Of a stretch of DNA of 64,000 nt, positions 26,148 through 48,858 are shown in pieces. The stretch's first letter is position 1, and each line of letters opens with the position of its first letter. The notes beneath the pieces were generated by a model that saw only the letters and a program-made list of their open reading frames with translations, was not told where the DNA came from and did not search any database. The stretch covers positions 443,277 through 507,276 of the forward strand of contig JAKLDG010000001.1 of NCBI GenBank assembly GCA_022703645.1. Direction: 5' to 3'. This DNA comes from Patescibacteria group bacterium. GTDB lineage: Bacteria; Patescibacteriota; JACPGU01. The translations under genes were made by a program, and so were the position numbers.

Positions 26148-26231
26148 TTATCCACAAATGGTAATCATTTGCATTTATAATAACATATTTAAAATATAGA
26201 GCAAGCTATATAAAATATTTTCTGTGGATAA
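26148..26231. promoter_or_regulatory. pair of inverted DnaA-box 9-mers (TTATCCACA at 26148-26156; TGTGGATAA at 26223-26231) upstream of the 911-aa secreted protein gene
   Basis: Two perfect 9-mers 66 bp apart in opposite orientation; both in the extended form AGTTATCCACA(A/G)A. Confidence 0.5.
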
Positions 26232-26828
26232 CTATATCCTATAAACGTAGATGTTTTTTAGGCTTCCCTTAGCGATAAAATACGTCCAGATTGGTTCCAT
26301 ATTCTGGAAACAAAATGTATTGCAAATAATGTACGTTCCAGTTTTGCACTCTTTTTTGATTTTTTCTTCAAGCTTCTCCACAATCTCAGGGAATAAATAT
26401 AGATATATTATATCCGCCTTCGAAAGATCTGTTTTGAAAAAATTGCCAAATTTTATCTTTGAGTTTTTTCTTACCTTTGATCCCGATATCAGTCTTTTGA
26501 CTTTTGCATAAAGCAGAACAGCAGGATTGATTTCAAAGCCTGTACTTTTTACCGGAAATTTTTTCGTTAAAGCAAACAGAGCCATTCCCCTCCCGCATCC
26601 GAGATCATAAAGTACCTTACCCTGGACAAATATGTCTTTGAAATATGGGTCATCGATTATTTTTTTGATAACAAATTTGTTGCTGCTCAGACTCGGCACG
26701 CGAATCATAATCATGGAAAATATAATATCGAACAGTATAAAGACTGTCGCCCCAAAAAGTATCAACATAAAAATAATATAAAGTATCTGCATAAAATGAT
26801 TATAACATAAAAAATAAAAAGGACGCAT
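26232..26828 (-). CDS. class I SAM-dependent methyltransferase with N-terminal TM helix
   Basis: 198 aa. 'VLYDLGCGRGMALFAL' motif I; 'ADIIYLYLFPE' motif-II-like. Confidence 0.75.
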   Translation of the reverse strand: MRPFYFLCYNHFMQILYIIFMLILFGATVFILFDIIFSMIMIRVPSLSSNKFVIKKIIDDPYFKDIFVQGKVLYDLGCGRGMALFALTKKFPVKSTGFEINPAVLLYAKVKRLISGSKVRKNSKIKFGNFFKTDLSKADIIYLYLFPEIVEKLEEKIKKECKTGTYIICNTFCFQNMEPIWTYFIAKGSLKNIYVYRI

Positions 26829-26852
26829 ACAATGCGCCCCTACAAATTAATC

Positions 26853-29162
26853 TTAATCTTTTTTCTCCTCTTCCTTGTTTTCTTGATTTTTTGTTTTTAT
26901 GTTTTCTTGCCCCTTAGTCGGATCTTCCCAACTTGCCCATTTACAATCAGGATAAGCGGAACATCCCCAGAATTTTTTGCGGCGTTTTGTAAATTTTACA
27001 ACAACATCACCTTTGCCGCAGTCTGGACACTTCATATCAAGTTTTTGCTCATTCATAGACTTTACATTTTTGCATTTTGGGTAAGCCGAACAAGCCAGAA
27101 ATTTTCCAAATCGTCCTTGCTTGATTACCATTTCAGAACCGCATTTTTCGCATTTTCCTCCGTTAGATTCTTTAACTGCCTCCGCTTCTTCTTTCGTTTC
27201 TTCGAGAGGCTGAGTATGTTTGCAATCCGGGAATCCTGTACAAGCAAGAAATTTACCGAACCGTCCAAATTTTTCTTTCAGCGGTTTCCCGCACTTTGGA
27301 CACATTATATCAGTAATTTTCTCTTCTCCCATAATATCTTCTTTTGAAATATCTTTATCTTTTTCTTCCAGATTTTTTTCAAATGGTCCATAGAAATCTT
27401 TAATCATTTTGTGCCAATCCTCTTTGCCTTCTGCGATATCATCAAATTCTTCTTCTACCTTCGCTGTAAAACCAATATCAACTATCTGCGGAAAATGTTC
27501 TACCAAAACATCATTCACGATTAATCCAATTTCTTGCGGATGAAATTTTTTCTCAATTAGTGTCACATATCCCCTATCTTGAATTGTCGCAAGAGTCGGA
27601 GCGTATGTGGATGGACGTCCGATTTCATTTTTTTCGAGTTCTTTTACCAGAGATGCTTCGGTAAATCTTGGCGGCGGTTGAGTAAATTTTTGTTGAGGAT
27701 CTAGATTTACCAGATCAAGATTATCCTTTTCATTAAGAGGTGGTAAAAATCCTTCTTTATCCTCTTCATCGATCTTGTCACCTTCGTCAATATCCTCTAT
27801 ATATACCTTTATAAAACCGGGAAATTTTACCACTGAACCTGTAGCGCGGAACATATAGTTTTTCGCATTAATATCTACCGATGTAGTGTCCATAACGGCC
27901 GGAACCATTTGAGATGCAACGGCTCTTTTCCAGATGAGAGTGTATAGACGAATCTGATCTTTATCTAGATATGCTTCTACATCATCAGGAGACAATTCCG
28001 GATGAGATGGGCGGATAGCTTCATGCGCTTCCTGCGCGCCCTTTGATTTATTTTTATAAAAATTTGCGTTATCCGGCAAGTATTCTTTGCCAAACTTATC
28101 ATTTATTTGTTGGCGAATAGCGGTTAGTGCTTCGCTCGCTAAGTTTAGCGAATCAGTACGCATATATGTTATCAAACCAAGATGTCCATGGGAACCCAAA
28201 TTCATACCTTCATAAAGCCTTTGCGCCACCATCATAGTTTTCTTTGCAGAGAACCCAAGTTTGCGCGCTGCTTCCTGCTGAAGTGTTGAGGTAGTAAATG
28301 GCGGAGATGGATAGCGGTTTTTTTCTTTCCTGCGAACTTCACCAACTACATAATCAGCCTTCTCTAATTCATTTAAAATCTGATCCGCCTGTTCTTTATT
28401 GACTACTTTTAATTCTTTACCATCCTTCTTAATCAATTTCGCTTGAAATTTTTCTTCTTGTTTTTTTGCTTTTTTGCTTTCTTGTTTAATTAATTCCGCT
28501 ATCAATTCCCAATATTCTTCAGGATTAAACGCCTGAATTTCGCGTTCTCTTTCAACAACTAATCGAACCGCAACAGATTGAACTCTGCCGGCTGAAAGAC
28601 CTTTTTTTACTTTTCTCCATAGAAATGGTGAAAGTTTGTAACCTACAAGACGGTCAAGGACTCTGCGAGCCTGCTGAGCATTCACAAGATTTATATCTAG
28701 TTCTCTTGGATTTGCAACCGCATCCTTCACCGCACTATCAGTTATCTGGTTAAATACAATCCTATGAACTTTAATATCATCGCTTGGCGATTCCTTAACT
28801 TTTAACTTTGAACTTTTAACTTTTAACTTCTTGGCATTTAATCCTAATGCAATACTTAAATGCCAAGCGATGGCCTCTCCTTCTCGGTCCAAGTCCGTCG
28901 CAAGATAAAGAGTTTTCACTTTTTTCAGGTCTTCTTTGAGTGCCGATACAGTTTTCTTCGCTTTTGTCGGTATTATATATTGAGGCTCAAAATCGTGTTC
29001 AACATCAACACCGAGCTTGCTTTTCGGCAAATCGCGAACATGTCCGTAACTCGCACGAACCATAAAATCTTTCCCCAATATTTTTTCGATCGTTCCTGCT
29101 TTTGCTGGGGACTCTACAATTACCAAGTTCTTACTCATAAAAGTATTTATTATAATTTTCAA
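26853..29162 (-). CDS. topA: DNA topoisomerase I with C-terminal zinc-ribbon repeats
   Basis: 769 aa. 'LVIVESPAKAGTIEKILG' Toprim, 'YLATDLDREGEAIAWH', catalytic Tyr region 'GLITYMRTDS', C4 zinc ribbons (CPKCGK...C..C). In-frame (AACTTTT)n repeat at 28786-28830. Confidence 0.92.
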   Translation of the reverse strand: MKIIINTFMSKNLVIVESPAKAGTIEKILGKDFMVRASYGHVRDLPKSKLGVDVEHDFEPQYIIPTKAKKTVSALKEDLKKVKTLYLATDLDREGEAIAWHLSIALGLNAKKLKVKSSKLKVKESPSDDIKVHRIVFNQITDSAVKDAVANPRELDINLVNAQQARRVLDRLVGYKLSPFLWRKVKKGLSAGRVQSVAVRLVVEREREIQAFNPEEYWELIAELIKQESKKAKKQEEKFQAKLIKKDGKELKVVNKEQADQILNELEKADYVVGEVRRKEKNRYPSPPFTTSTLQQEAARKLGFSAKKTMMVAQRLYEGMNLGSHGHLGLITYMRTDSLNLASEALTAIRQQINDKFGKEYLPDNANFYKNKSKGAQEAHEAIRPSHPELSPDDVEAYLDKDQIRLYTLIWKRAVASQMVPAVMDTTSVDINAKNYMFRATGSVVKFPGFIKVYIEDIDEGDKIDEEDKEGFLPPLNEKDNLDLVNLDPQQKFTQPPPRFTEASLVKELEKNEIGRPSTYAPTLATIQDRGYVTLIEKKFHPQEIGLIVNDVLVEHFPQIVDIGFTAKVEEEFDDIAEGKEDWHKMIKDFYGPFEKNLEEKDKDISKEDIMGEEKITDIMCPKCGKPLKEKFGRFGKFLACTGFPDCKHTQPLEETKEEAEAVKESNGGKCEKCGSEMVIKQGRFGKFLACSAYPKCKNVKSMNEQKLDMKCPDCGKGDVVVKFTKRRKKFWGCSAYPDCKWASWEDPTKGQENIKTKNQENKEEEKKD

Positions 29163-29272
29163 TTATCAATTCACAATTTTCAATCAATGATACAATTAAC
29201 AATTTTCAAATTTAAGAATTGAAACATTGAAAATTTATTGAGAACTGAAAATTGAAAATTGAAAATTTTTTA
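29161..29272. repeat. intergenic inverted-repeat element of (AATTTTC)n / (GAAAATT)n heptamer arrays between dprA and topA
   Basis: AATTTTCAATCAATGATACAATTAACAATTTTCAAATTT ... GAAAATTGAAAATTGAAAATTTTTT. Confidence 0.65.
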
Positions 29273-29402
29273 ACTTTCCCTTTATATCACACTTACCAAT
29301 GTCTTGTCAAAAAATATTTAATTATTTGATATTAGGAATTAGAGCTTAGAAATTTTTTGCAACAAAATACCATGATGCATAAAAACTTTACAAAAGTAGA
29401 AA

Positions 29403-30536
29403 TCATCTCTTCGCTCTCATGTAGTTTCCCCCGCCTACATTCCTCACTAACCCCTTCATTTCCATTGTCACGAGCGTACCGTTCAAATCTGAAATCGCAA
29501 TCCCCGCTTCGCGCGCTATTTCATCAATATGCTTGCTTTCTAATTCCAAAACCTTCAAAACTTTTTCTTCATTTTCGTTTTCTGGAATTATTTCATGAGC
29601 TTCAATATTTTCTGCCACATTTTTCAAGTGCAACTCTTCCAGAATATCATCAACTCTTTCAACTAATTTTGCGCCTTTTTTTATCAGCGCATTTGGACCT
29701 GATGCGTTTTTATTATAAATCGAGCCCGGAACCGCAAAAACATCTCTCCCCTGTTCCAGCGCAAATTGTCCAGTGATCAGCGATCCGCTTACCTCCGTCG
29801 CTTCGACGACTAATACGCCAAGCGAAAGCCCGGAAATAATTCTATTTCTTGCTGGAAAATTTTGTTTGAGCGGTGGCGTAAATATCGGATATTCTGATAT
29901 TATCGCTCCTCTCCCATTAATAATTTCGGCTGCCAGAGCACGGTTTTCTGTGGGGTAAATACTCGCATCGTCAATTCCACAACCCAAGACCGCGATCGTT
30001 CTGGCATCTTTAATTGCAAGAGCCGCTTGATGCGCGATTCCGTCTATGCCTGCAGCTAACCCTGAAATAATCGTTATTTTATTTTGCGCCAAACCGGTTA
30101 CTAATTCTTTAGTAACCTGCCTGCCGTAATCAGAGCAACGTCTAGCTCCCACAACCGCAAAGGCAAACTCATCTTCACTTTTCAGCTCACCTCGAACATA
30201 AAGCAAAAACGGCGGGTTATAAATCTCTTTCAACAATTTCGGATAATTTTTATCTTTGATCGTAATCAAGCGAATCCCCTCTTTCTCGATTTTTTCCATC
30301 TCAATATCAAGATTTATTTCGCCGCGCGCTTTTTTTATTTCAGTGATAATAGTCTCTTCAATTCCTGCGCGAGAGAGATCGGAATCGCTCGCTTTCCAAG
30401 CATTTTCCATAGAATCAAAAAAGCTCACCAAACGATTCCCGCGAGCAGCCCCAATTCCCGGTATCATTGAAAATCCAACCCAATATTTTAGATCGTCTTT
30501 TTTCATATTTTCAGCGTAACATAAATTTTTTACCAA
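29403..30536 (-). CDS. dprA: DNA-processing protein DprA (Smf)
   Basis: 377 aa. 'AFAVVGARRCSDYG', 'IISGLAAGIDGIAHQAAL', 'AVLGCGID' Rossmann DprA core, C-terminal winged-helix. Confidence 0.88.
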   Translation of the reverse strand: MVKNLCYAENMKKDDLKYWVGFSMIPGIGAARGNRLVSFFDSMENAWKASDSDLSRAGIEETIITEIKKARGEINLDIEMEKIEKEGIRLITIKDKNYPKLLKEIYNPPFLLYVRGELKSEDEFAFAVVGARRCSDYGRQVTKELVTGLAQNKITIISGLAAGIDGIAHQAALAIKDARTIAVLGCGIDDASIYPTENRALAAEIINGRGAIISEYPIFTPPLKQNFPARNRIISGLSLGVLVVEATEVSGSLITGQFALEQGRDVFAVPGSIYNKNASGPNALIKKGAKLVERVDDILEELHLKNVAENIEAHEIIPENENEEKVLKVLELESKHIDEIAREAGIAISDLNGTLVTMEMKGLVRNVGGGNYMRAKR

Positions 30537-30629
30537 ACCAAGTAAAATAAAATAATCTTTACATATTGGCTTATTTATGCTATAATTTAAAGCATTAGGA
30601 AGAACATTACAAATTCAAGGAGGGCTAAA

Positions 30630-31304
30630 ATGCCTGAAAAAAAGAAGGTATTTCTGACAGATCCAAACTGGAGGGTGTTCGAAATTTCTTGGACGCCAAA
30701 AGACTATGGGGAAATAAAAAAGAAAAAAATCTCCAAGTTTTTAGCGGAACATCAGGACGGATGGTTCATGAATATCCTTTCACTGTCCAACGGAACGCTG
30801 ACTTTCCGCATCAAGGCAACTAAGAAAGAAAAAGAAAGTATTAGCTCACCGGTTTTCATCGGGAGAATTCTGACAAGAGCACAGAAAACTCTCTCCGGAG
30901 AAAAAATGGGGTTTATCGATGCCGATACCCATATTCGTGAAGAAGACTGCTCCATAAAAATCTTATACGTTTTCATAATTTCCGGAGACAACCTTCTTTA
31001 CCCGGTAAAAAGAATCGGCACTTCTGAAAAAAAAGTCTTGCTCGCACTAAACCCAGGCCGCGAAATCGTCAACATGAAGGTCTCAAAAGAAGAGCTGAAA
31101 GGAACATCAGCAGAATTCGCACCAACACTTCGGTCCTGCAAGAAAAATATCTGCTGGAAAAAAGAGTTCCCGATCGCGAAAGCCATCGAGGAAGAAATGC
31201 GCGAGCATCAAGAAAAAAAAGCATCAAACGCGAATACTCCTGCGAAAAAAGGTAGAAAGAAAGAAAGGTATGCAATCCCGGGTCAAGGAAATCTTGATCT
31301 ATAA
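30630..31304 (+). CDS. hypothetical protein (plus-strand ORFan with elevated GC)
   Basis: 224 aa, basic. Preceded by an extended -10 (TGCTATAAT at ~30580) and an AGGAGG SD 7 nt before the ATG. Confidence 0.6.
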   Translation: MPEKKKVFLTDPNWRVFEISWTPKDYGEIKKKKISKFLAEHQDGWFMNILSLSNGTLTFRIKATKKEKESISSPVFIGRILTRAQKTLSGEKMGFIDADTHIREEDCSIKILYVFIISGDNLLYPVKRIGTSEKKVLLALNPGREIVNMKVSKEELKGTSAEFAPTLRSCKKNICWKKEFPIAKAIEEEMREHQEKKASNANTPAKKGRKKERYAIPGQGNLDL

Positions 31305-31344
31305 CAATGCCACTTTTCCCTCAGTCTTTTTAGACTGCCGGGAA

Positions 31345-31366
31345 TTGCCTTCCGAAAGGGAGGCAT
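31345..31366 (+). terminator. rho-independent terminator between convergent genes
   Basis: GCCTTCC-GAAA-GGGAGGC hairpin then ATTTTTATTTT; sits between the stops at 31304 (+) and 31369 (-). Confidence 0.6.
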
Positions 31367-31368
31367 TT

Positions 31369-34300
31369 TTATTTTGCAAGATCCTCAATCAGGTTTTCCA
31401 ACTTTCTCAGCCAATCACTTCCTAACTTTTCCAAATCAATACGAACCAACATATTGCCAAAATACCAATAGCCATTTGTCGCAACAATTTTTCGTGATTC
31501 TTCTTTTGTTAAAACATGGTCAAATTCGATATATAATTTTTTGACCTTTACATCCGCAATCGATAAAACATCCTTTACGACCATAGATTTAATTCCAGCG
31601 GCCTTTGCAAGAATTTTTAATTTAATCAGTTCGAATAAATTATCAAACTTTTGTGGTATTTTACTTTCCTGATTTATAATTTCCTCCTTAATTTCCTCAA
31701 TTTCTTCAATTTCATCTATGCTTGCCAATTTCTGATACATTTTTATCTTATCCTCTTCCTTTTCATAAAATCCATCCGGAATTAACGCGGAAATCGGTAA
31801 ATCAATCTTAATTTCATCCTCGCTTTTTGCAAATGTCGATTTGCCTTCTTTAATATTCCCCACTGCTTCTTCGAGTAATCGAAGGTAGTATCCAACACCA
31901 ACCATTTGCATCGATCCATGCTGTTCTTTTCCAAGTATGTTTCCGGAACCTCTGATATCAAGATCTTCAAGTGATAACTGGTAGCCGGAACCAAGATCGC
32001 CTTTTTCGGTAATAGTTTTAAGCCGTCTTGCGGCATTGCCAACCAAGTCCTTCGAATCATAAAGAAAATATGCGTATGCTTGGCGGAAGCTTCTACCGAT
32101 TCTCCCGCGAAGTTGATGCAGTTGGGATAGACCAAACTTTGTCGCTTTGTCCACTATGAGAGTATTAACGGTTGAAATATCCAGCCCCGACTCAATAATC
32201 GTAGAACAAACCAAAACTTGGAATTTCCCTGCGGCAAAATCATTCATCACGTGAGCTAAAGCTTCCTCCCCCATTTGTCCATGTCCAATTCCAAAAGTCA
32301 CTTTTGGCAATAATGTTTTTAGTTTTCCCGCCAAGGCAGTAATTGTCCGCACTTCATTATGAACGAAGTAAACTTGTCCATCACGATCAATTTCTCTTTG
32401 AATTGCTTCTCGTATAATCTCTTCATCACCTTTTATCACGATGGTTTTTATTGGCAGTCTTCCTTCCGGCGGAGTCGCAATAACGCTAATATCTTTCAGC
32501 CCTGATAAACCCATGTAAAGAGTTCTTGGAATTGGGGTCGCAGTCATAGTGAGAATGTCCACTTTGTCGCGCAATTTTTTGAGCTTTTCCTTATGCTTTA
32601 CGCCGAATTTTTGTTCCTCATCAATAACTATCAACATGAGATTTTTGAATTTCATATCAGATGATAATAATCTGTGGGTCCCGATCACAATATCCACGTT
32701 TCCGCTTGCAATTTTTTTCACAATCTCTTTCTGCTCAGTAGTACTATGAAACCTAGACAAAGATTCTATATTGCAATGCAGAAATTCCAATCTTTCTCGG
32801 AATGTCTGCAGATGCTGCTCAGCAAGAATTGTTGTTGGTGTTAATACTGCAACTTGTCCACCCGAATCAATGACACGAGCAGCAGCGCGAATTGCCACTT
32901 CTGTCTTGCCATAGCCGACGTCTCCGCAGACAAGCCTATCCATCGGCTTTGCTTCCATCATGTCAGAAAGCACATCATCAATCGCTTTTTGCTGATCTGG
33001 CGTCGTTTTGTAAGCAAAGCTACGAGAAAGAGCGTCTTGCTCCTTCGCATCATTAATATATCGGTAAGGTTTTTCTCCAGATCGCAAAGCTTGCGTTTCG
33101 ATTAATTCTTTAGCGATTTTTTCAACATTTTCCTGAACTTTTTTACGGACTTTTAGCCAGTTTCCGGATTTCAAAGATGATAAAAGAGGACTTTGATTCC
33201 CAACGCTGATATATTTTGTTATTTTATCTGCCTGATCGAGTGGAACAAAAATCTTATCTCCTCCTCCGTATTCAATGAAAATATATTCCCGGCTGATTTT
33301 GTCTACTGTGATTTCCCCGAATCCGGTAAAAATACCAATACCATGATCAATATGCACGACATACTCACCTTTCTTCAGGTTTGTAATTGCCGAAAAATCT
33401 ATCTTTTTTTTCTTCCTGTTTTTAAATTGGCCAAATATCTCTTTATCACTAAAAATCGTGATGCCAAGACTTCCAAGATCAACTCCCTCGCTAAGATGCC
33501 CTCCAATAATTTGTACGGCCGAATGGCTGTTTGACCCTACTTCAATAGAGTTTTCCAATAAAAATTTCTTCATCTCATCTATCTTCTCGGTAACAATAAA
33601 AACCTCCCTCTCTTTTGTTTTATTGTTTTCTTGTTTTATTGTTTTCTTGATTTCATGAACAAATTCCATCACCGCGCCTTTATAGTTTTTCGGCGCAAAC
33701 CAAGAAAGGTTCACACCCTTTTTTTCATCTACATGGAATGGTTCAATATAAACAACCTTTTGTTTTTTTACAAAAGCCTCAAGATCTTTAAGTTTTTCGA
33801 TTTCGTCTTCGGTAACTTTATAATCATCAGATGAAAAATACGAAAAGAAACTGTTATTAAATTGATCTTCACCATCAACCAAAAAAACAAAACCGTCAAG
33901 ATATTTGAGAAAAAAATCACTTCCTTCTGTAATTTTATTTGGGTAGACTTCAATTTTCTCAAACTCTTTTTCGTTTACCAAGTCTGAAATTTTTTCAACT
34001 TCATCTCCAAAAAATTCAATTCTATATTGCTTTTCAAAAATATTTATCTCAAGAACATCTCCTTTCACACCAAACTCTCCCCTACTGCCGACTTTTTTCA
34101 CTTTTTCATATCCGTTTTTAACCAACTGATCCGGAATCTGATGCGCGATATCATATTTCTCGCCCTTTTTGATTTCAAAAAAACTCTCTTTGTAGTTTTC
34201 GATTGGAATGACGCGAGTAAATAGTGTTTCGAAATCGATAAATACCGCCTTATTTTTATTCTCCGGCAAGTACAATTCTTCAACGTTGTCTGTTCTTAAC

Positions 34301-34566
34301 CAAAAAAAGCTGTCAAACCCAAGAGTTTTAGTGTTGCTAATTATATCCCCGGAATCGAGAATCTTTTTACTTGATAGGAAAACCACTCTCTTTTTATCCG
34401 CTTTACCGGGTATTTCATAGAGCTCGTTATGAAAATAACTTAGCAATATAGACTTGCTTATATCCCCTACTTCACCAATAAAAAAAGGCGTAGGTACACG
34501 AACCCCCGCCTCAAATAGTTTTGAGTTGGTTATTTTCTCTGAAATTTGTTTTGCTAAATTCTTCAT
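31369..34566 (-). CDS. mfd: transcription-repair coupling factor Mfd
   Basis: 1065 aa. RecG-like helicase core 'LVCGDVGYGKTEVAIRAA', 'DEEQKFGV', 'TATPIPRT'; N-terminal UvrB-homology and C-terminal TRCF domains. Confidence 0.9.
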   Translation of the reverse strand: MKNLAKQISEKITNSKLFEAGVRVPTPFFIGEVGDISKSILLSYFHNELYEIPGKADKKRVVFLSSKKILDSGDIISNTKTLGFDSFFWLRTDNVEELYLPENKNKAVFIDFETLFTRVIPIENYKESFFEIKKGEKYDIAHQIPDQLVKNGYEKVKKVGSRGEFGVKGDVLEINIFEKQYRIEFFGDEVEKISDLVNEKEFEKIEVYPNKITEGSDFFLKYLDGFVFLVDGEDQFNNSFFSYFSSDDYKVTEDEIEKLKDLEAFVKKQKVVYIEPFHVDEKKGVNLSWFAPKNYKGAVMEFVHEIKKTIKQENNKTKEREVFIVTEKIDEMKKFLLENSIEVGSNSHSAVQIIGGHLSEGVDLGSLGITIFSDKEIFGQFKNRKKKKIDFSAITNLKKGEYVVHIDHGIGIFTGFGEITVDKISREYIFIEYGGGDKIFVPLDQADKITKYISVGNQSPLLSSLKSGNWLKVRKKVQENVEKIAKELIETQALRSGEKPYRYINDAKEQDALSRSFAYKTTPDQQKAIDDVLSDMMEAKPMDRLVCGDVGYGKTEVAIRAAARVIDSGGQVAVLTPTTILAEQHLQTFRERLEFLHCNIESLSRFHSTTEQKEIVKKIASGNVDIVIGTHRLLSSDMKFKNLMLIVIDEEQKFGVKHKEKLKKLRDKVDILTMTATPIPRTLYMGLSGLKDISVIATPPEGRLPIKTIVIKGDEEIIREAIQREIDRDGQVYFVHNEVRTITALAGKLKTLLPKVTFGIGHGQMGEEALAHVMNDFAAGKFQVLVCSTIIESGLDISTVNTLIVDKATKFGLSQLHQLRGRIGRSFRQAYAYFLYDSKDLVGNAARRLKTITEKGDLGSGYQLSLEDLDIRGSGNILGKEQHGSMQMVGVGYYLRLLEEAVGNIKEGKSTFAKSEDEIKIDLPISALIPDGFYEKEEDKIKMYQKLASIDEIEEIEEIKEEIINQESKIPQKFDNLFELIKLKILAKAAGIKSMVVKDVLSIADVKVKKLYIEFDHVLTKEESRKIVATNGYWYFGNMLVRIDLEKLGSDWLRKLENLIEDLAK

Positions 34567-34675
34567 TCATAAATATTATACCAGTATCAATGTAAAACTC
34601 AAGGTTATCGTTAGTTAAATATAGCCCAAGAGTACTAAATCCTATCATCCTAATCCCCGTAACCTATTCTAAAAG

Positions 34676-34684
34676 TTATCCACA
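34676..34684 (+). promoter_or_regulatory. DnaA-box 9-mer TTATCCACA in the mfd upstream region; box-like variants at 34786-34810
   Basis: Perfect TTATCCACA ~110 bp upstream of the mfd start. Nearby TTGTGGACAA and TTATCCATT, and an inverted repeat TGGTCAATT...AATTGACCA. Confidence 0.45.
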
Positions 34685-34859
34685 GTGGTCAATTTATATG
34701 CTATTTTTTAATTGACCAGTGTGTAAAATATTCAAGTATATTTGTCCATCTATTACATAATAATGGCTTAATTAAGTCAATATTATTTGTGGACAAATTA
34801 TCCATTGACAATTAGAAATCATTGTGCTATATTATAAGCAAAATTCAGTATCGAAAGAA

Positions 34860-35460
34860 AGCACATTCATAAAAAATCTATATCACTTCTCACTAACTTT
34901 AGACATATGGAGTTGGTAGAGAAAGTGCTAGTCACGAAGAGTCAGTCTGGTCTCAAAGAAAATTTATTTCCTTTGTCTCCTCTCTAACTTTCTCGCGGTT
35001 AGCACTCTCTCTACCAATACTTAGAAAAAATTTTCAAGAGGTTCGCCTTTTGAAAAAATATCAAAGTTGTTTGTGGAGAGAAAACTACTTGCGAACTCTC
35101 AACGCAAGTTGAGATTCGGAAAATCTTTTAGCCCTCCTTTAAGAAATTCCTACTCGCAAGTAGTACTCTCCCCATTAGCACCCACGCACTAGCTCAGAAA
35201 TCCTATTGGAGGAGCTAGGGTCAAAATAATGTCGCCTAGACAGAATAGTTTGGGAATTCTGCTAGTGAGGAGTAATTTGGACGGATCGTCCCGGATGTAA
35301 AGGTCTCATAGCCTACCAAAATAAAAATAAAACTATAAATACATTAATATGAGGCCTCCCCACCCAGGAGGATCCGTCCAAAACATCTACACCACCTCCA
35401 AATCTCTCAACACCGAAGTAGCACCTTCGGAGCCAGCGCCAAGCTGGCTACTACTCGTAC
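34860..35460. ncRNA. candidate structured noncoding RNA of unknown family (ORF-free, hairpin-rich, GC-elevated region between mfd and pth)
   Basis: No ORF of 60 aa or more on any frame across ~960 bp. Multiple GNRA-capped hairpins (TCTCAAC-GCAA-GTTGAGA; TACTC-GCAA-GTAGTA). Local helices CCGAAG..CTTCGG and AGCCAGC-GCCAA-GCTGGCT. Long-range complementarities GGTAGAGAAAGTGCTAG / TTAGCACTCTCTCTACC and GACGGATC...GATCCGTC. Region ends just upstream of a perfect bidirectional terminator. Confidence 0.35.
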
Positions 35461-35465
35461 AAAAA

Positions 35466-35485
35466 AACCGGTCATTCGACCGGTT
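35466..35485 (-). terminator. bidirectional rho-independent terminator (pth terminator; may also close the upstream structured region)
   Basis: AACCGGTC-ATTC-GACCGGTT perfect 8-bp stem flanked by A7 upstream and TTTTTATTTTT downstream. Confidence 0.75.
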
Positions 35486-35533
35486 TTTATTTTTGATTTT
35501 TTGATTTCTTGCTTTCTTGTTTAATTGTCTCCC

Positions 35534-38279: not shown

Positions 38280-38314
38280 ATAAAAATTCTAACCTATTTT
38301 TTCAGAAATAACAA

Positions 38315-38340
38315 GAGGAATGCTTTTTAAGGCATTCCTC
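38315..38340 (-). terminator. terminator hairpin after the M23 peptidase gene
   Basis: GAGGAATGC...GCATTCCTC 9-bp stem; T-rich run follows on the minus strand. Confidence 0.55.
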
Positions 38341-38344
38341 TTTA

Positions 38345-38386
38345 TTCTAGATTCTAGATTCTAAATTCTAGATTCTAGATTCTTGC
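38345..38386. repeat. (TTCTAGA)6 heptamer microsatellite
   Basis: TTCTAGATTCTAGATTCTAAATTCTAGATTCTAGATTCTTG between the peptidase stop codon and its terminator hairpin. Confidence 0.8.
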
Positions 38387-39660: not shown

Positions 39661-39974
39661 TATTACCTTTCCTTATATATTATTTGATACGAAAGGGCTT
39701 ACTTTTTGGGTGTGGATTTTCTCCACAACCCTTTTTGAGCAAACCATATCAGTGTATCATAAAAAATCGAGCTTGTCAACCTTATTCGATGGTTAACACA
39801 CTTTTTTCGTGTTATATATTTACATTCAGTTTATGTGAAAATCAGGTTAAAATAGCTATATATAGCGATTTTTCCATACAAAAAGGGCGCGATGTGCCCC
39901 CCTAAAATACCAAATTTCGCTTATTTACCTTATTAGTAGTATAGCATGGTATTTTATAATAAAAAACTGTGGAG

Positions 39975-39983
39975 TTATCCACA
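39975..39983 (+). promoter_or_regulatory. DnaA-box 9-mer TTATCCACA inside the palindrome CTGTGGAGTTATCCACAG, upstream of the M23 peptidase gene
   Basis: Perfect 9-mer; flanking sequence forms a 7-bp inverted repeat. Confidence 0.45.
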
Positions 39984-40023
39984 GTTACCTTTTCCCCACT
40001 TACTCACATTTTGAGAATGGTTA

Positions 40024-40929: not shown

Positions 40930-40934
40930 ATTTT

Positions 40935-41678: not shown

Positions 41679-41802
41679 GTCAAATTTCAAATTTCCAATT
41701 TCAAATTAATGACTAAATTTCAAATGATAAAATAATACGCTCATAAATTTGACATTAAACATTTGACATTGATTTGACATTTGTCATTTTTAATTTGTCA
41801 TT
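41679..41802. repeat. (CAAATTT)n heptamer array followed by five direct TTGWCAT repeats upstream of ftsE
   Basis: CAAATTTCAAATTTCCAATTTCAAATT ... CATTTGACATTAAACATTTGACATTGATTTGACATTTGTCATTTTTAATTTGTCATT. Confidence 0.6.
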
Positions 41803-41823
41803 AAAAAGAATTTAAAGAATATT

Positions 41824-42858
41824 TTATTTTTTCCTGCGAAGCTCCTCATCTATAAACTCCTCAATATCTCCATCGAGAACTGCGTCCACATCTCCGACTT
41901 CAAAATCCGTTCTGTGATCTTTCACCATTCTATATGGATGCAGTACATATGAACGGATCTGATGTCCCCATGAAGCCTGCACATTTTCACTCTTTAATTT
42001 TTTTACCTCAGACTCTTTTTGTTGTTCAAGAAGCAATGCCAAACGCGACTTCAAAACTTTCATCGCTCTTTCTTTATTTTGATGCTGGCTTCTTTCTGAC
42101 TGACAGCTGACTGTGATGCCGGTCGGTATATGGACAATTCGTACTGCGCTATCAGTGACATTTACTTTTTGTCCACCTTTTCCAGACGCGCGGAACGTAT
42201 CAATTCGTAGGTCTTTTTCATCAATATCGATTTCGCTTTCATCTGCCAAGACTGGTAGAACTTCAACCAGCGCAAAAGATGTCTGACGCAGATTTTGTGA
42301 ATTAAATGGCGATTTTCGGACTAACCTATGAACTCCATATTCGTTTTTCAGTAACCCATATGCATAAACACCTTTAATTTCTATTGTTACGCTTTTTATG
42401 CCCGCTTCCTCTCCTGCTGAAATATGCAGGATCTCTGTGCTCCAACCTTTGCTCTCAGCATAACGAAGGTACATGCGCATTAGCATTTCCGACCAATCCA
42501 TCGCGTCCACTCCTCCCGTTCCGGAATGGATTGAAAGTATCGCATCTCCCCTATCATATTTTCCATTGAGAAAAGTTTTGACTTCAAGCGCCGCAAAACG
42601 CTTGTTAAGATTTTCTATTTCAGTATTATCAACCGCGCCCGTACAATCCAATTCCAATTGCTCCCAATCCCCTACTTCTTTCTGTAAATCAGCCAACTCA
42701 CGCATAATCTTACCGGCAGTTTCGCTATTCTGCCAGAAAGATTGATCGGTTGATAATTTTTCCAGTTCTGATATCCTATCATAAATACCCTTCTCTTTGA
42801 GAAAGGTTTTGTTGCGGTCTATTTCGAGTAATAATTCTTCGAGGGAAAGTATGTTCAT
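41824..42858 (-). CDS. prfB: peptide chain release factor 2, encoded without the programmed +1 frameshift
   Basis: 344 aa. 'RKSPFNS' (SPF tripeptide = RF2), '[24 protein letters not shown]' (GGQ). The N-terminal 25 codons read straight through (…[10 protein letters not shown]…) with no CTT TGA site. Confidence 0.85.
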
Positions 42859-43015
42859 AAAAAATTAAAATATTATGAAAATATTACAGAATATTTCAAA
42901 ATATTATTTCTTTAATATTTTACAATATTTTACAATATTTTCAAACCGCTTTTACCAAAACAAAAAACCTCAGGTTTTAACCTAAGGTTTTTTGTCTCAC
43001 TTAATGCGAGTGTAA

Positions 43016-45073
43016 TTATCTATTGATTACTTTCAAAGCTTTGTCCAAATTACCACTTTCTTTCATATAGATGTAAGAAGCGATAGAGATGAATGCAGCT
43101 AATAGTATCAATGCAAGAACTGTTTCAGAAGTTCCTGAGCTTGGCAAAGTTGTTACAGCTCCACCACCCAAATTGATGGTAACTAAGCTTGAAACAGATG
43201 TAATGCCATCAGCGGTACCGTTTGCAGAGTAAGTCAATTGAGAGATATTACTTGGAGTATCACTCTTCACCTTTGCAGAAAATTCATAATACCCAGTAGC
43301 ACCCACGCTTAAGTCGCCTAGACTTATACCATTTGAGAATGAGCTGTCAGCAGTAGAGGTTGTGTTACCAGATAAAACTACTTTTACTGAACCAGCAACA
43401 AACTCCATATTTTTTGGCAACGCATTTGTTAACTTAACGTTAGCAAGCTCAGCATTTCCAACGTTTGCGAAATCAACATGGAATTTGATAACATCGCCTC
43501 TGTTTGCAGAAACAACATTATTGAATCCAATTGATTTTGCAGCTGTTGAATTATATGCAGTAGCATTTACGAATAAGTTCTTTGCAGCTGTAGGTTCACC
43601 GCTTACTGTAATAATACCATTGTTATCTGATAATGAAATTCCAGAACCAATTACTTGGTTGTCAGCAGCATATGTACCAGCAGCAGTGTTACCAGAAACC
43701 TTAACTTTATAAGTTAAGTAAAACCAGTGAGCACCTGCTAAATCAGGTAATATAACACCATTACCAGCACCATTGATAGCGTCAGCTAATGGCATAACTT
43801 GGTCAGTACCTGTCGCATCTTCATAATACAATTTTGAAAATCCTGGAACGTATTCAATTCCAGCTGGCATTATAGCGCGAGCGTGAAGAATTGTAGCAGC
43901 TGAGCTACCACGGTTTGTGATAGTCATTCTGTAGATTAATTCGTCGCCTGGGTTTGCATTAACGCTTTGTGTGTAAGCTTTGTCTCCCTTTGTAAGATTA
44001 TACAAAGATGAAGCCAAAGTTACATTTGTGTTGATAGTTGTACCAACAGCAATCAAGCCATTGTTATCTGATAATGAAATTCCAGAACCAATTACTTGGT
44101 TGTCAGCAGCATATGTACCAGCAGCAGTGTTACCAGAAACCTTAACTTTATAAGTTAAGTAAAACCAGTGAGCACCTGCTAAATCAGGTAATATAACACC
44201 ATTACCAGCACCATTGATAGCGTCAGCAATTGGAATAACTTGGTCAGTACCTGTCGCATCTTCATAATACAATTTTGCAAATCCTGGAACGTATTCAATT
44301 CCAGCTGGCATTATAGCGCGAGCGTGAAGAATTGTAGCAGCTGAGCTACCACGGTTTGTGATAGTCATTCTGTAGATTAATTCGTCGCCAGCAGATGCAT
44401 TAACGCTAGGGTTATAAGCAGTCTCACCTTTTGTTAAATTGTATAGAGATGATGCAAGATATACTTGTGGTTGGCTAGTATTTGTATTGTCACCAACGCT
44501 TGAAGTAGCAGGAGTACCTGTCGTAACGCTTGCAGGTACGCTCGCGCCACCAGCAACAACTGATGCGTTATTTGCTGATAATGCAACTCCGCCATTTGCC
44601 ATTACCTGATTATCAGGGGCAAATGATCCGCTAGCAGCAGAAACAGTAGCTTTGTAAGTTACAAAAGCAGTAGTTCCAGCTGGAATGTCAATTCCAAGAG
44701 AAGTTCCTGCAGCTGAAGCGATAGCATCAGCAACTGGAGCTACTTTGTCAGCACCACTTAAATCTTTGTAATATACTTTTGAATATCCGGCAGTATATTG
44801 TAAACCGGCTGGCATAGTAACTCTTGCCATTACTCCTGTTGCAGGAGTTGCAGAACCATTAGTAATGTTCATTGCAAAAAGCACGCTATTACCATTAGCT
44901 GCATTGACAGAATTTGTCCATACCTTATTTCCAGATGTAATATTTGCTACAGCGGATGTCAAAGACAAACCGGCAGCAGATGTTGCAACTGGAGCAACAA
45001 TAGCGAAAGTCATAAGACCAATCGCTAAATAATTTATTAATTTTTTAATCATTTTTTCTCCTTTTGATAACAT
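43016..45073 (-). CDS. surface protein with DUF11-like repeat domains and LPXTG-like C-terminal sorting signal
   Basis: 685 aa. Signal peptide (probable start MIKKLINYLAIGLMTFAIVAPVATSAAG). Two near-identical ~147-aa internal repeats. C-terminus 'LPSSGTSETVLALILLAAFISIASYIYMKES' = LPxxG, hydrophobic span, charged tail. Confidence 0.7.
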   Translation of the reverse strand: MLSKGEKMIKKLINYLAIGLMTFAIVAPVATSAAGLSLTSAVANITSGNKVWTNSVNAANGNSVLFAMNITNGSATPATGVMARVTMPAGLQYTAGYSKVYYKDLSGADKVAPVADAIASAAGTSLGIDIPAGTTAFVTYKATVSAASGSFAPDNQVMANGGVALSANNASVVAGGASVPASVTTGTPATSSVGDNTNTSQPQVYLASSLYNLTKGETAYNPSVNASAGDELIYRMTITNRGSSAATILHARAIMPAGIEYVPGFAKLYYEDATGTDQVIPIADAINGAGNGVILPDLAGAHWFYLTYKVKVSGNTAAGTYAADNQVIGSGISLSDNNGLIAVGTTINTNVTLASSLYNLTKGDKAYTQSVNANPGDELIYRMTITNRGSSAATILHARAIMPAGIEYVPGFSKLYYEDATGTDQVMPLADAINGAGNGVILPDLAGAHWFYLTYKVKVSGNTAAGTYAADNQVIGSGISLSDNNGIITVSGEPTAAKNLFVNATAYNSTAAKSIGFNNVVSANRGDVIKFHVDFANVGNAELANVKLTNALPKNMEFVAGSVKVVLSGNTTSTADSSFSNGISLGDLSVGATGYYEFSAKVKSDTPSNISQLTYSANGTADGITSVSSLVTINLGGGAVTTLPSSGTSETVLALILLAAFISIASYIYMKESGNLDKALKVINR
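43617..44498. repeat. tandem duplication (2 x 441 bp) within the surface-protein gene
   Basis: 43617-44057 and 44058-44498 are nearly identical over ~330 bp (e.g. CCATTGTTATCTGATAATGAAATTCCAGAACCAATTACTTGG...GTTAAGTAAAACCAGTGAGCACCTGCTAAATCAGG), diverging towards the 3' ends. Period 441 = 147 codons, in frame. Confidence 0.85.
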
Positions 45074-45403
45074 TTTCGTCTATTCTTATTCTCGTGTCAT
45101 CGACCCTCACCAACCTGACACTTCAAAAAATCCCAAGACAAAAACGTACAAATTTAAGTTTATTATTATTTGTTAACTATTATTAATCTATTCTAAAAAA
45201 TATTTAATATAGATTATTATTTTAAGTTATCAAGTTTGTTTGCTCGCTAATTATCACTAATTAATCGCTAATTTCGCTAATGGATTCAAAATTACCCATT
45301 CGTGAAATTCGTGAAAAATTCGCGACAATTCGCATTTCTCTATTATATATATTCAGTTAAGGAAAACAAATTTTTTGCGAATACCTTTATAAAAAATATG
45401 AGT

Positions 45404-45432
45404 GCGGCGAATGGGGAAACCCCCATTCGCCG
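45404..45432 (-). terminator. rho-independent terminator of the GC-rich lipoprotein gene
   Basis: Perfect 13-bp stem GCGGCGAATGGGG-AAA-CCCCATTCGCCGC; T-run follows on the minus strand. Confidence 0.7.
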
Positions 45433-45551
45433 CATACATTTCAAAAGGAATTGCGGTTAAACACTTAACTACTCCGGGGAAGCAGTTTCAGCGCTAACCA
45501 TTGGGTTGAATGTCCTCTCTCGACTGATTTTGCCCATAGGCAGGGTAAAAC

Positions 45552-47060
45552 TCAGAAGAGAGAAGAGTTGCTCTCCGCGGCCGGAGGAGGAGGCGGAGGC
45601 GGAGGAACTACCCCCACCGACGCCACATTCGAAATATTGGTCTTGCCTGAATCCTCAAAACCAGAAGTCTTCACTGCCGACGTCGGATTGGATCGCGGAG
45701 AAGGTTCCGGCCATGCGTTCGCGCCGATAACTGAGGTACTGGTGCCTGCGCCACCGGTCGTACCGGGAGCGGGCTGCCAGTCAGAATCCCATACTTGAGA
45801 ATTCGGAACGTCAGGGGTTATACCCGAGACGTTCGTGGTATCCGCAACATTTCCGCATTTCTCGCAATACTGTCCGGCACCGCCATTGCCGTTTCCTGGT
45901 GTCGGATTCGGGTTCGGATTCGATGCGGGAGGAGGTGGAGGGACAGGCCGATTCTTACCGAAAACATTATCCTGAATCTTCTTCGGCATAATATTTACTG
46001 TGGCATCCCAGAGTAAATAGTCGAAGAAAAGTCCGGCTGGGTTAAGCACGCACTTGCGTCCGTGCATCGACTTCTTGAGGCTCATGTCGCACAGAGGCTT
46101 GTCGATGTACATATCTCCGAGCGTCCCCATGGTTGCGCCGATAATAGTATCTCTTTTGTTCTTCTTCGGCTTGGCCGCGAGCGAGTTGCAGTAGGAGCCA
46201 AGACTTTTGTACCATGTGTTGTTCGGGTCGAGCTCGATGAGTCTGCCGATCATCTTACAAAGAGCGTTCCAGTCACCAGCGTTATATAACGCCCGCGCCT
46301 GATTGTCCAGATCGTTTGCAGTATTGCCTGCGGAGGCTTTTTTCTTCTTGCCCGCTGGCGGTACTGAACCAACTGTCGGTTTCGTGTTCGTCGCGAAGCT
46401 GGGGCTGGTCACGATCTTGTGAATATCGTTGACCTGTTTCCCGGTTTTGATGATCACTGGTTTAGTTTCCCGCACGATCTTGACGGTTTCAGCGGTATCT
46501 TTCTTGATGTCCTTGATACCGGATTTGATTTCCTTGTGGTCGGCTTTGTTTTCGCGCAGTGCGTCGAAAACATTTGGGACATCTTCGCTGGGTACACCAA
46601 GTTTGTCGTCTACGACTTCAATGCCGAACTCGGTCAAGGCGGTATAGACGCACGTCAGATGTTCAATGTCCTTACCCTCTTTCGAAATGCAAGGGTCTAC
46701 GATACGCGCCTTATAATCATTGGGGCAATTAGCAATCATTTTCCTGATCATGTCCGGCTTTGCCTTCTGGGCTACCAGACGCTGAGCGACCTTACCCCCA
46801 GGGGCACAGACCATCGTACATGTTTGCACGAGGCCCTTGTCCACAAGCTCCTCGCATTTAATGATATTCCCCTTGGGAACGACATCCTTTAGGAGTTTGC
46901 TGGCATCTTTCGCTGTCCCCGTGCCGGCGTCCTTTGTGACGACGGTCGGGTTCTTCGATACCTTCTGTGTCTTGGCGCATCCGCCGGCAAAAACCGCTCC
47001 GGCGAGAATCGCAATCATCAGAATCATCGGTAGCAATGCTACCTTGCGCAACCTCTTCAT
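45552..47060 (-). CDS. secreted lipoprotein, hypothetical (GC-rich, Pro/Gly-rich C-terminal half)
   Basis: 502 aa. Lipobox-like 'LAGAVFAGGC'. C-terminal 'PPPPPPAAESNSSLF' and 'PVPPPPPASNPNPNPTPGNGNGGAG'. Strong SD (AGGAGG 9 nt before the ATG). GC far above the window average. Confidence 0.7.
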   Translation of the reverse strand: MKRLRKVALLPMILMIAILAGAVFAGGCAKTQKVSKNPTVVTKDAGTGTAKDASKLLKDVVPKGNIIKCEELVDKGLVQTCTMVCAPGGKVAQRLVAQKAKPDMIRKMIANCPNDYKARIVDPCISKEGKDIEHLTCVYTALTEFGIEVVDDKLGVPSEDVPNVFDALRENKADHKEIKSGIKDIKKDTAETVKIVRETKPVIIKTGKQVNDIHKIVTSPSFATNTKPTVGSVPPAGKKKKASAGNTANDLDNQARALYNAGDWNALCKMIGRLIELDPNNTWYKSLGSYCNSLAAKPKKNKRDTIIGATMGTLGDMYIDKPLCDMSLKKSMHGRKCVLNPAGLFFDYLLWDATVNIMPKKIQDNVFGKNRPVPPPPPASNPNPNPTPGNGNGGAGQYCEKCGNVADTTNVSGITPDVPNSQVWDSDWQPAPGTTGGAGTSTSVIGANAWPEPSPRSNPTSAVKTSGFEDSGKTNISNVASVGVVPPPPPPPPAAESNSSLF

Positions 47061-47692
47061 AGCGTTTTACCTCCTGTTATCCATAGATTTACCTCTTTCA
47101 AAAGTGAATGAGGCGGTGGTTGGGGTTTTCGCTATGTACTATCCCTATGCTTGTCCCCCCGCAGGAAAGCACTTGGAATCAAAAATATGTTTACTGATCC
47201 CTGCCTCAAAAATATCGAGGGCCTATCAGGAATCAGGTAACCTCCTTTCATTTTCTTGCTCCCCTTCCAAATTTGGAAAGAAAGTTTTGTTGTCCTTAAC
47301 TGAATATAATAATAGAATTATTTATTCTTACTCTGCTCGATTTTTAATGTACATATCCTTTTATAAAAACAAAAACCCAAGACAAATAACTATTTGGCCC
47401 GAGTTTCTGTTTTCATTGTGTATTGGCTTTTTTTGTCCATGTTTCCATAGACTTGGCTTTTTGTCATATAAAAGATATTTTGGCTTTTTTAAAAATGATC
47501 CCTTTTACGATATGTGGCCATTTTAACACATTTTTTCAATAACGTCAATAATATTTATGTAAAATAAGCTATTTTATAAAAACAACCTAGAAAAACAAAA
47601 AGGACAAAATAATTTTTGCCCTCCTCAAAAACTTTTTTTCTCTCATTTTTAAATATTTTAGCAAATTTTAAATGGGTAGTCAACGGGATAAA

Positions 47693-48748
47693 TTACAACT
47701 CTTCCTCTCTCGGCCTGTCTACTTCCACTGTACTAATTAATTCCCTTTCAACCCCGCCAATTTTTACGACATCTTTATCGATTTTTGTAAACTCTTTTCT
47801 CGCGCTTTCATAAGCCCCTACCGTAGCGCCAAGATTACTGCCAAGTTTACCCATGTATGCTTCATATTTCCGGATATGCGTATCAAGATCGCCAACTTTT
47901 TTTATAATAGATTTTGTTTGTTCTTCAATTTTGAATGCCCGCAAACCCTGCAAAACGGTTTGCAGATATGCAGCAAATGTAGTTGGGGATACTATAATCA
48001 CCTTTCTTTCTTTGAATGCATAGTCAATTAGACTTCTCGTATTAACAGAAACTTCTCCGACTTCATTTACCAGTAGGTCATAATAAATTGCTTCGGCTGG
48101 GATAAACATGAAAGCAAAGTCCAGCGTCCCCTCTTTTGGCTTTATATATTTACTGGTCTCATCAATTCTTTTTTTCAGATCATTCTTGAATTCTTTTTCG
48201 AGCGCTTTTCTTTTTTCCTTGCTTTCTTCCGCAATAACGCGCGTATAGTTTTCAAGTGAAAACTTCGCATCAACTGGTATAATCCCGTCTTTCGTAAATA
48301 TTGCAGCATCTACCGTATCTCCATCTTTGAAGGAATATTGTAACTGAAATGCGGTTGGCGGTAGAATATTTTCGAGAACTAACTGAAGCCCAGCCTCACC
48401 CAGATTCCCTCTTTGTTTCTGACTAGTCAAAACTTTCTGCAGATTATTCAGTTGTTCCGAAAACCCAATTACCTGTTTATTCGTCTCATCAAGCTTGGTT
48501 AATTTCTCGGTAACTTCAGAAATTATTTTGGCGCTTTGTCCGAATTGCATCTGCATGCTTTTTGTACTTTCGCCTAATTTTGCATCCATAACCTTCGACA
48601 ATTCTTGCAGTTGGTTCTGGATAAGAAGAAATGCTTTATCATCCCCCACCGGTTCGCTCTTCTTTTTATTAAGGGAAACCAAAATATAGACTGATATGAT
48701 AATCAGCACGACCACAAGCACTGTTAAAATTAAAATTGTTGGTTCCAT
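47693..48748 (-). CDS. rmuC: DNA recombination protein RmuC
   Basis: 351 aa. N-terminal TM, long coiled-coil, C-terminal 'FAFMFIPAEAIYYDLL' RmuC nuclease-like core. Confidence 0.8.
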   Translation of the reverse strand: MEPTILILTVLVVVLIIISVYILVSLNKKKSEPVGDDKAFLLIQNQLQELSKVMDAKLGESTKSMQMQFGQSAKIISEVTEKLTKLDETNKQVIGFSEQLNNLQKVLTSQKQRGNLGEAGLQLVLENILPPTAFQLQYSFKDGDTVDAAIFTKDGIIPVDAKFSLENYTRVIAEESKEKRKALEKEFKNDLKKRIDETSKYIKPKEGTLDFAFMFIPAEAIYYDLLVNEVGEVSVNTRSLIDYAFKERKVIIVSPTTFAAYLQTVLQGLRAFKIEEQTKSIIKKVGDLDTHIRKYEAYMGKLGSNLGATVGAYESARKEFTKIDKDVVKIGGVERELISTVEVDRPREEEL

Positions 48749-48849
48749 ATTTATAATCTACCACAAAAAATTAAAACTTTCTACATCAGTTAAAAACCTT
48801 TGACTTTTTCGCTTTTTTATGGTACAATTATACGGTTTTGTCAAAAGCT

Positions 48850-48858
48850 GTGGATAAA
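48850..48858 (-). promoter_or_regulatory. DnaA-box 9-mer (TGTGGATAA) in the divergent promoter region between rmuC and the 192-aa secreted protein gene
   Basis: Perfect reverse-complement box, 27 bp upstream of the plus-strand start at 48885. Confidence 0.45.

Follow-up and report, generated by a model that had tools for sequence, protein, structure and literature searches.

A 64,000-nt stretch of DNA (hereafter the window) from a Patescibacterium related to candidate division CPR3 (CPR, candidate phyla radiation) was found to carry six perfect copies of the DnaA-box 9-mer TTATCCACA, five of them in intergenic regions. The 9-mer, which is identical to characterised DnaA boxes, is enriched, and three of its sites are kept at orthologous positions in related genomes, with constant orientation and at fixed distances from predicted promoters. 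Judged by these features of the sequence, the boxes represent a real regulatory site of a known kind, one that most likely ties gene expression to DNA replication. We consider it probable that each of the five intergenic copies is a single high-affinity DnaA operator located outside the origin; together they would make up a small DnaA regulon of envelope proteins, a cell-division hydrolase and Mfd. To our knowledge, CPR3-like Patescibacteria, an uncultured group with very small genomes, have yielded no experimental findings on gene regulation. A motif that is conserved within a clade, occupies defined promoter positions and matches the site of the replication initiator offers a concrete, testable regulon, and it points to a link between replication initiation, splitting of the cell wall (FtsEX and its M23 hydrolase), surface proteins and transcription-coupled repair.

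Perfect boxes in the window and at orthologous positions

On the two strands of the window, TTATCCACA occurs six times (Table 1), against 0.73 ± 0.83 copies expected from dinucleotide shuffles; none of 100 shuffled sequences had at least six copies (Poisson P ~1e-4). By the gene map made in this analysis, intergenic DNA accounts for 11.7% of the window and contains five of the six copies (binomial P 1.2e-4), and TGTGGATAA is the top intergenic-enriched 9-mer of the window once low-complexity words are excluded. The first-pass annotation of this DNA had also counted six perfect copies but listed only five, overlooking the one at 6495, and had placed all of them in promoter regions; the overlooked copy lies outside the range given there, within an open reading frame (ORF) for a VirD4/TrwB-like protein. 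As ~0.7 chance copies are expected in the window, the 6495 box is probably one of these. The start of the last box, given as 48850, proved to be 48849 (minus strand), whereas the inverted pair at 26148 and 26223 with its 66-bp gap and the palindrome around the 39975 box (CTGTGGAGTTATCCACAG) had been described correctly. Degenerate copies reported at 34786–34810 do exist, as TTGTCCACA (34788–34796, minus strand) and TTATCCATT (34798–34806, plus strand), but belong to another repeated element (see below). Apart from promoter geometry, the flanks of the six copies are alike only within an 11-mer, and a repeat or mobile element was rejected on these grounds.

All six copies have the ideal form of the asymmetric DnaA-box consensus TTWTNCACA. 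The extended consensus of the boxes is (A/G)GTTATCCACAG, and the 11-mer GTTATCCACAG is identical to box R1 of Escherichia coli oriC, which in the MG1655 oriC sequence, read directly, is cCTGTGGATAACa, i.e. GTTATCCACAG on the opposite strand; the flanking G...G of the boxes thus match those of R1 as well. Box R4 (gaGTTATCCACA) has GTTATCCACA in common with the window boxes.

The Mfd protein encoded in the window is 55–62% identical to proteins of uncultured Patescibacteria, one of them named candidate division CPR3, and its RmuC is 81–91% identical to proteins of the same group; by this protein similarity, the window is from a CPR3-like Patescibacterium. Loci of seven other genomes were obtained via exact-protein look-ups, and the Mfd proteins of the eight genomes compared, window included, are 48–62% identical. 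Scans of genome and metagenome contig collections with Mfd yielded only organisms with 33–47% identity. Three pairs of loci come from the same genomes (L081 and L172, L083 and L170, L085 and L171), and L166, L167, L168, L169 and L173 represent one genome each.

These genomes share the gene order prfB-ftsE-ftsX-(gap)-M23 peptidase-ctpB-L9-ybaB-...-pth-(gap)-mfd-...-dprA-topA, with a box in both gaps. Counting the window, the gap between ftsX and the M23 peptidase gene contains a perfect box in all eight genomes, and in the pth-mfd gap six genomes have a perfect box and two have TTTTCCACA, all in the same orientation. At every one of these boxes the gene strand reads (C)TGTGGATAA(C). The DNA around them has diverged, the gaps varying in length by hundreds of bases and the mean column identity amounting to 43–58%. 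Even where two or three unrelated genes are inserted between the box and mfd, as in L085 and L169, the box stays beside the conserved upstream promoters. The box on the rmuC side is kept with identical geometry in L170, the sole relative that has the divergent gene for a small exported protein, and is missing from three genomes that lack this gene. Three sites are thus conserved at orthologous positions, and the boxes have the location of regulon operators, being promoter-proximal and conserved upstream of orthologous genes. The site between topA and the gene for the large secreted protein showed no positional conservation; at that promoter, L083 and L085 have only box-like elements in other places, which fits site turnover within a regulon.

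Among orthologous sites, TTTTCCACA at the mfd site and TTATTCACA and TTGTGCACA at the second box of the ftsX-M23 pair are altered at positions 3 and 5 only, the ones left open in the classical consensus, although the G at position 3 of TTGTGCACA is not covered by its W. The second box of the window, TTACTCACA, is altered at position 4 too. The overall pattern, TTNTNCACA, is near the classical DnaA degeneracy, and together with the identity to R1, flanks included, it favours DnaA as the binder.

The relatives contributed 209 kb of non-redundant sequence, in which 16 perfect boxes were counted and 2.06 expected (Poisson P 7e-10); intergenic DNA makes up 14.3% of this sequence and holds 13 of the 16 (binomial P 4e-9). 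Control DNA from distant bacteria, 2.37 Mb in the vicinity of mfd, had 0.49 perfect boxes per 64 kb. Chance was rejected on these statistics and on the conservation of the boxes. The intergenic enrichment on which the first-pass annotation had staked its case is therefore seen in the window and in the relatives alike, and its proposal of a regulatory site is supported by the orthologous positions, the single orientation and the fixed distances to predicted promoters.

That annotation was also right in holding that the window has neither dnaA nor a strand-bias switch and is not oriC. Pfam analysis of 40 ORFs and a tblastn search with the E. coli protein showed no dnaA in the window; the gene was also missing from every fetched locus, and the window has no dnaN. 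The GC skew is negative throughout the window and the cumulative skew monotonic, with no switch; nearly all genes are on the minus strand, and gene orientation is the same on both sides of the boxes. An origin was rejected because the skew does not switch, the genes do not change orientation, dnaA is missing, and each site has one or two boxes instead of a cluster.

Promoter geometry of the individual sites

Table 1. Boxes, predicted promoters and associated elements in the window (positions refer to the 64,000-nt stretch)
Feature	Position	Strand	Remarks
Perfect box	6495..6503	+	Inside VirD4/TrwB-like ORF (5201-8191, -); no neighbouring boxes
Perfect box	26148..26156	+	Gene (-) strand reads TGTGGATAAC; starts 20 nt past -10 of 911-aa gene promoter
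Extended -10 promoter of 911-aa gene, TTGCTC-16-TGtTATTAT	26177..26204	-	Predicted, consensus match only
Perfect box, inverted	26223..26231	-	Abuts methyltransferase gene stop codon; 18 nt upstream of 911-aa promoter -35
Core promoter of mfd, TTGAGT-16-TGgTATAAT	34575..34602	-	Predicted
Perfect box upstream of mfd	34676..34684	+	Gene strand reads CTGTGGATAAC; 67 nt past -10 of sense promoter; ~110 nt upstream of mfd ATG; perfect or TTTTCCACA in 7/7 relatives
Sense promoter, TTGACT-17-TGTAAT (relatives TTGcCT-17-TATAAT)	34752..34780	-	Conserved
Promoter of structured RNA, TTGACA-17-TGtGCTATAtT	34805-34833	+	Invariant
Structured RNA candidate	34805-35490	+	Core 35070-35374
Bidirectional terminator of the RNA	35463-35488
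One-mismatch box TTCTCCACA	39719..39727	+	23 nt past main M23 -10, reading TGTGGAGAA; same orientation as others; window only
Initial transcribed sequence (G/T)ATAYGGTTTKSTCAAAAG	39723-39750, 48829-48848		Also L170 ~9868-9887 and M23 promoters of L083, L085
Main M23 promoter, TTGACA-17-TGaTACACT	39751..39779	-	Both elements conserved in relatives
Perfect box, ftsX to M23/PcsB-like peptidase gene	39975..39983	+	Gene strand reads CTGTGGATAAC; perfect in 8/8 genomes
Weaker second box TTACTCACA	40000..40008	+	25 nt from 39975, start to start; same orientation
One-mismatch box TTATCCATA	47077..47085	+	Ends 16 nt before ATG of 502-aa lipoprotein-like gene; same orientation; not conserved in relatives
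Strong promoter of 192-aa gene, TTGACT-17-TGgTACAAT	48800..48828	+	Predicted; divergent from rmuC
Perfect box	48849..48857	-	Plus strand reads CTGTGGATAA; starts 20 nt past -10, ends 27 nt before 192-aa gene ATG

At three promoters, those of the 911-aa and 192-aa genes and that of the L170 orthologue of the latter (TTGATT-17-TGgTATACT, box at 9859), the box starts exactly 20 nt past the -10 element and its non-template strand reads TGTGGATAA; with the transcription starts inferred, this spacing would put it at about +14 to +22. The second box near the 911-aa gene lies upstream of the -35 element, and the promoter (26204) is thus bracketed by two perfect boxes. Since the 48849 box is flipped along with its plus-strand gene, box orientation tracks transcription, not replication. 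Signal or anchor sequences are present at the N-termini of the 911-aa (membrane-anchored/secreted), 192-aa and M23 proteins. The promoters of the M23 gene and of the 192/203-aa gene, which are unrelated, share the initial transcribed sequence (G/T)ATAYGGTTTKSTCAAAAG directly 3' of the -10 element, and this may be a conserved leader or discriminator element.

In the ftsX-M23 gap, six genomes have a pair of boxes 24–25 nt apart in the same orientation, after which comes the invariant TTTAATTATAAAATA; the position of the second box is occupied in five relatives by TTATTCACA, TTGTGCACA or TTATTAACA. The perfect box forms the 5' arm of a terminator-like hairpin that precedes a U-rich run in the window (39955-39995; -12 kcal/mol, z -3.1) and in L168 (1934-1974; -17.7 kcal/mol, z -5.9). 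Between these two most divergent genomes the 3' arm of the hairpin has changed and the box has remained constant. There is no significant hairpin at this box in five of the seven genomes tested, and the other box sites have none; with the hairpin limited to the window and L168, a terminator was rejected as a general explanation.

Upstream of mfd, the distance between the -10 element of the conserved sense promoter and the box is 66–67 nt in the window, L081, L083, L167 and L168, which would place the box at about +61 to +69. The mfd gene has a core promoter of its own, whose TATAAT is invariant in the four aligned genomes and lies 4–7 nt before the start codon (34566-34602 of the window, minus strand), so that the mfd mRNA is probably leaderless. 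Promoters of the clade follow the grammar TTGAC-17-TGnTAnAAT, and several of them are invariant across the eight genomes. The one-mismatch box at 47077 is a doubtful member of this set of sites.

Structured RNA and other elements in the neighbourhood

The 967-bp pth-mfd gap also contains a conserved structured RNA candidate of ~300–650 nt, on the strand opposite to the genes. An nhmmer profile detected it in all eight CPR3-like genomes (E 1e-42 to 1e-83) and in none of ~160 other mfd loci; Rfam 15 gave no match to it, and searches of the gaps returned only terminator-like noise. In the 63-pair structure, 91.6% of the positions are paired, against 41–48% with the partners slid, and 25 pairs show compensatory changes, against 4–9 when slid. 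None of 500 shuffles reached the observed value on four of five measures, and 16 of 500 did so on the fifth, the count of further pair types. For the pairs predicted on both strands, G-U outnumbered A-C by 18 to 6, with one helix favouring the other strand, and the RNA is probably transcribed from the promoter strand. An invariant 20-mer, CUUUUAGCCCUCCUUUAAGG, presents an anti-Shine-Dalgarno-like CCUCCU in a hairpin loop, and additional hairpin domains are inserted in the RNAs of the window and L081. Annotation of these genomes should profit from this unclassified RNA and from the clade's promoter grammar.

Between the RNA promoter and the perfect box (window 34690-34810, and the same region in L081, L083, L085 and L166–L169) there are four to six repeats of the motif TTGTC(C/T)A / (T/G)(A/G)GACAAT, the element to which the degenerate copies mentioned above belong. 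It abuts the -35 element of the RNA promoter, which in the relatives is overlain by its palindrome GACAATTGTC, and it differs there from the DnaA box by three mismatches; it is probably the site of another regulator.

The gap after rmuC (window 47061-47692) is conserved in the relatives as well (632–965 nt) and has no match in Rfam. Two extended -10 promoters lie in it on the minus strand, with -35 elements at 47683 and 47548; one is TTGACTA-N-TGcTAAAAT, the other the near-invariant TTGACg-N-TGTGTTAAAAT. A hairpin and a T-run come after each of them, and small RNAs are their probable products.

Three further regions may be mentioned. Upstream of the gene for a 685-aa CLIPPER/DUF11 surface protein there are direct repeats of ATTAGCGA and AATTCG(T/C)GA (window 45240-45330 and 45400-45435) and a GC-rich hairpin, GCGGCGAATGGGG-AAA-CCCCATTCGCCGC; L171 has a comparable run of AATTCGCG repeats, in a different gap (~11300-11480). 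Between the M23 gene and ctpB (38346-38382), a tandem repeat has four copies of GAATCTAGA-type units at offsets of 7 and 14 nt, adjoined by a terminator-like hairpin (38313-38342). At 5201-9411, around the probable chance box, the gene for a 996-aa VirD4/TrwB-type coupling ATPase adjoins one for a protein combining sigma-70 region 4 with a HARE-HTH domain, and this pair may be the remnant of a conjugative or DNA-transfer module.

The binder of the boxes and comparison with known systems

According to the reading that we favour, DnaA, whose gene lies outside the window, would bind GTTATCCACAG and modulate transcription. At the 911-aa and 192-aa promoters, a protein bound at about +14 to +22 would stand in the way of RNA polymerase as it escapes the promoter or immediately thereafter, which predicts repression; the weaker copy at the main M23 promoter is similarly placed. 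At the mfd and ftsX-M23 sites, DnaA might instead gate transcription arriving from upstream. Expression of envelope, cell-division and repair genes would in this way be coupled to the level or nucleotide state of the initiator. Each occupied box would also take one DnaA molecule from the free pool, and titration would be an unavoidable side effect.

Several points weigh against DnaA operators of this kind. The binder is identified by sequence resemblance and the promoters by consensus matches, with the starts inferred, and the main M23 promoter lies ~200 nt beyond the ftsX-M23 box, which bears on what that box would target. None of the 19 perfect sites is part of an E. coli-type double box, the best neighbour at an offset of 11–12 nt having 3–7 mismatches. 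No cluster of at least three boxes with at most one mismatch within a few hundred bp was found; the number of such boxes within ±150 nt of a site never exceeds two, on a background of 1.25 boxes with at most two mismatches per 300 nt. One-mismatch boxes are not enriched in the window (24 vs 18.6 expected), and DnaA regulons usually include weaker sites. In vivo, E. coli DnaA binds 13 of 32 consensus single boxes and prefers pairs 2–3 bp apart (PMC11317965). Lastly, the asnC-mioC box of E. coli, a block to RNA polymerase during transcription (Schaefer and Messer, 1988, 1989, as cited in PMC10950094), has the opposite orientation, reading TTTTCCACAGG on the sense strand vs TGTGGATAAC here, and so this roadblock is not a directly transferable precedent.

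Some of these points would suit a different regulator that shares the TTATCCACA specificity and controls the envelope proteins, the M23 hydrolase and mfd. Single sites without doubles or clusters and unenriched one-mismatch copies fit a strict repressor better than a cooperative initiator, the conserved flanks reach AAAGTTATCCACAG, and the evidence from promoter geometry and conservation is blind to the identity of the binder. We nevertheless regard such a regulator as unlikely, if by no means negligible: core and flanks are identical to characterised DnaA boxes, the variable positions (3 and 5) are those of the DnaA consensus, the asymmetric site differs from the palindromic operators that most dimeric repressors use, and in none of the genomes is a candidate regulator gene linked to the sites. 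If DnaA is the binder, the boxes might still serve mainly to control the initiator, as titration sites or datA/DARS-like sites acting on its nucleotide state, with incidental effects on genes. The density of perfect boxes, ~6 per 64 kb in the window and ~4.9 per 64 kb in the relatives, would be a sizeable sink in a small genome; E. coli has 32 consensus boxes genome-wide (PMC11317965), or ~0.45 per 64 kb at 4.64 Mb, and Bacillus subtilis restrains initiation via non-origin box clusters (PMC3245932). Titration, however, needs no fixed promoter spacing, no gene-linked orientation and no joint loss of box and gene, and datA, DARS and the B. subtilis clusters comprise several boxes in a defined arrangement, none of which was found here, making this a rather improbable main function.

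It is very improbable that the motif acts at the level of the transcript or the core promoter, as a terminator stem, a promoter part or an RNA site. The hairpin with its U-rich run in the window and L168 would agree with such a role, as would the location of every box of the common orientation in DNA predicted to be transcribed, and at E. coli hisL a proposal exists that DnaA binds 'rDnaA boxes' in RNA (PMC10989985); the lack of a significant hairpin in most of the genomes and at all other sites speaks against it. A -10 or -35 element was rejected since TGTGGATAA has neither the A at -11 nor the T at -7 that a -10 element requires and sits downstream of good -10 elements. The window also encodes DprA and type IV pilus genes, and the motif could be taken for a DNA uptake sequence of natural transformation, being a short, over-represented word whose sites are close to genome-maintenance genes, with dprA, topA, mfd, rmuC and an addA-like gene in the vicinity, and with one copy within a terminator-like inverted repeat, where many Neisseria uptake sequences sit. 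We find this hardly credible. Known uptake sequences occur about once per kb, whereas here there is one copy per ~10–13 kb, 81–83% of the copies are intergenic and few are in coding DNA (3 of 16 in the relatives); nor would fixed orthologous positions, gene-linked orientation and promoter spacing be expected.

DnaA operators thus remain our preferred reading, and they invite a broader speculation, itself quite unlikely, that in small CPR genomes isolated consensus boxes, ~10 times denser than in E. coli, are the main device for cell-cycle coupling, each serving as both operator and titration site. Operators would control exported envelope proteins, the FtsEX-dependent M23 hydrolase and mfd; the ftsX-M23 box would double as a terminator stem in some genomes, with DnaA on DNA or nascent RNA setting read-through from ftsEX, and the structured pth-mfd RNA would be under the same control.

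Among known systems, oriC has the same box sequence and AT-rich surroundings but differs by a GC-skew switch, a change of gene orientation, dnaA/dnaN and a box cluster, all of which the window lacks. The DnaA-box clusters (DBCs) of B. subtilis and E. coli datA, DARS1 and DARS2 are likewise intergenic boxes away from oriC, and the window sites could, like them, lower or modulate free DnaA; they consist, however, of several boxes in a defined arrangement, with additional IHF (integration host factor) sites in datA and DARS2, whereas the window sites have one or two boxes. The asnC-mioC box resembles those of the ftsX-M23 and pth-mfd gaps in being a single box between an upstream transcription unit and the next promoter. 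Its effect is orientation-dependent, according to the title of the 1989 paper, and the window sites keep one orientation.

The closest parallel is with DnaA acting as a transcription factor, as it does in E. coli, B. subtilis and Caulobacter, where genes of DNA repair and cell division are among its targets (PMC11317965; PMC8203912), as they would be here; regulatory DnaA boxes outside origins are well known (PMC8203912). Sites at E. coli dnaA, nrdAB, mioC, polA and purH, B. subtilis sda, ywlC and ftsL, and Caulobacter ftsZ and gcrA have the same 9-mer in promoter-proximal positions. Unlike E. coli DnaA sites, the window boxes are single, without the partner spaced 2–3 bp away that E. coli needs at most sites. 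Full-text literature searches brought up no publication dealing with DnaA boxes in CPR or Patescibacteria. In contrast to known DnaA regulons, the targets here would be mfd, an FtsEX-associated M23 hydrolase and large exported proteins of an uncultured CPR lineage; the proposed CPR box operators would thus add a new lineage and new targets to a known use of DnaA boxes.

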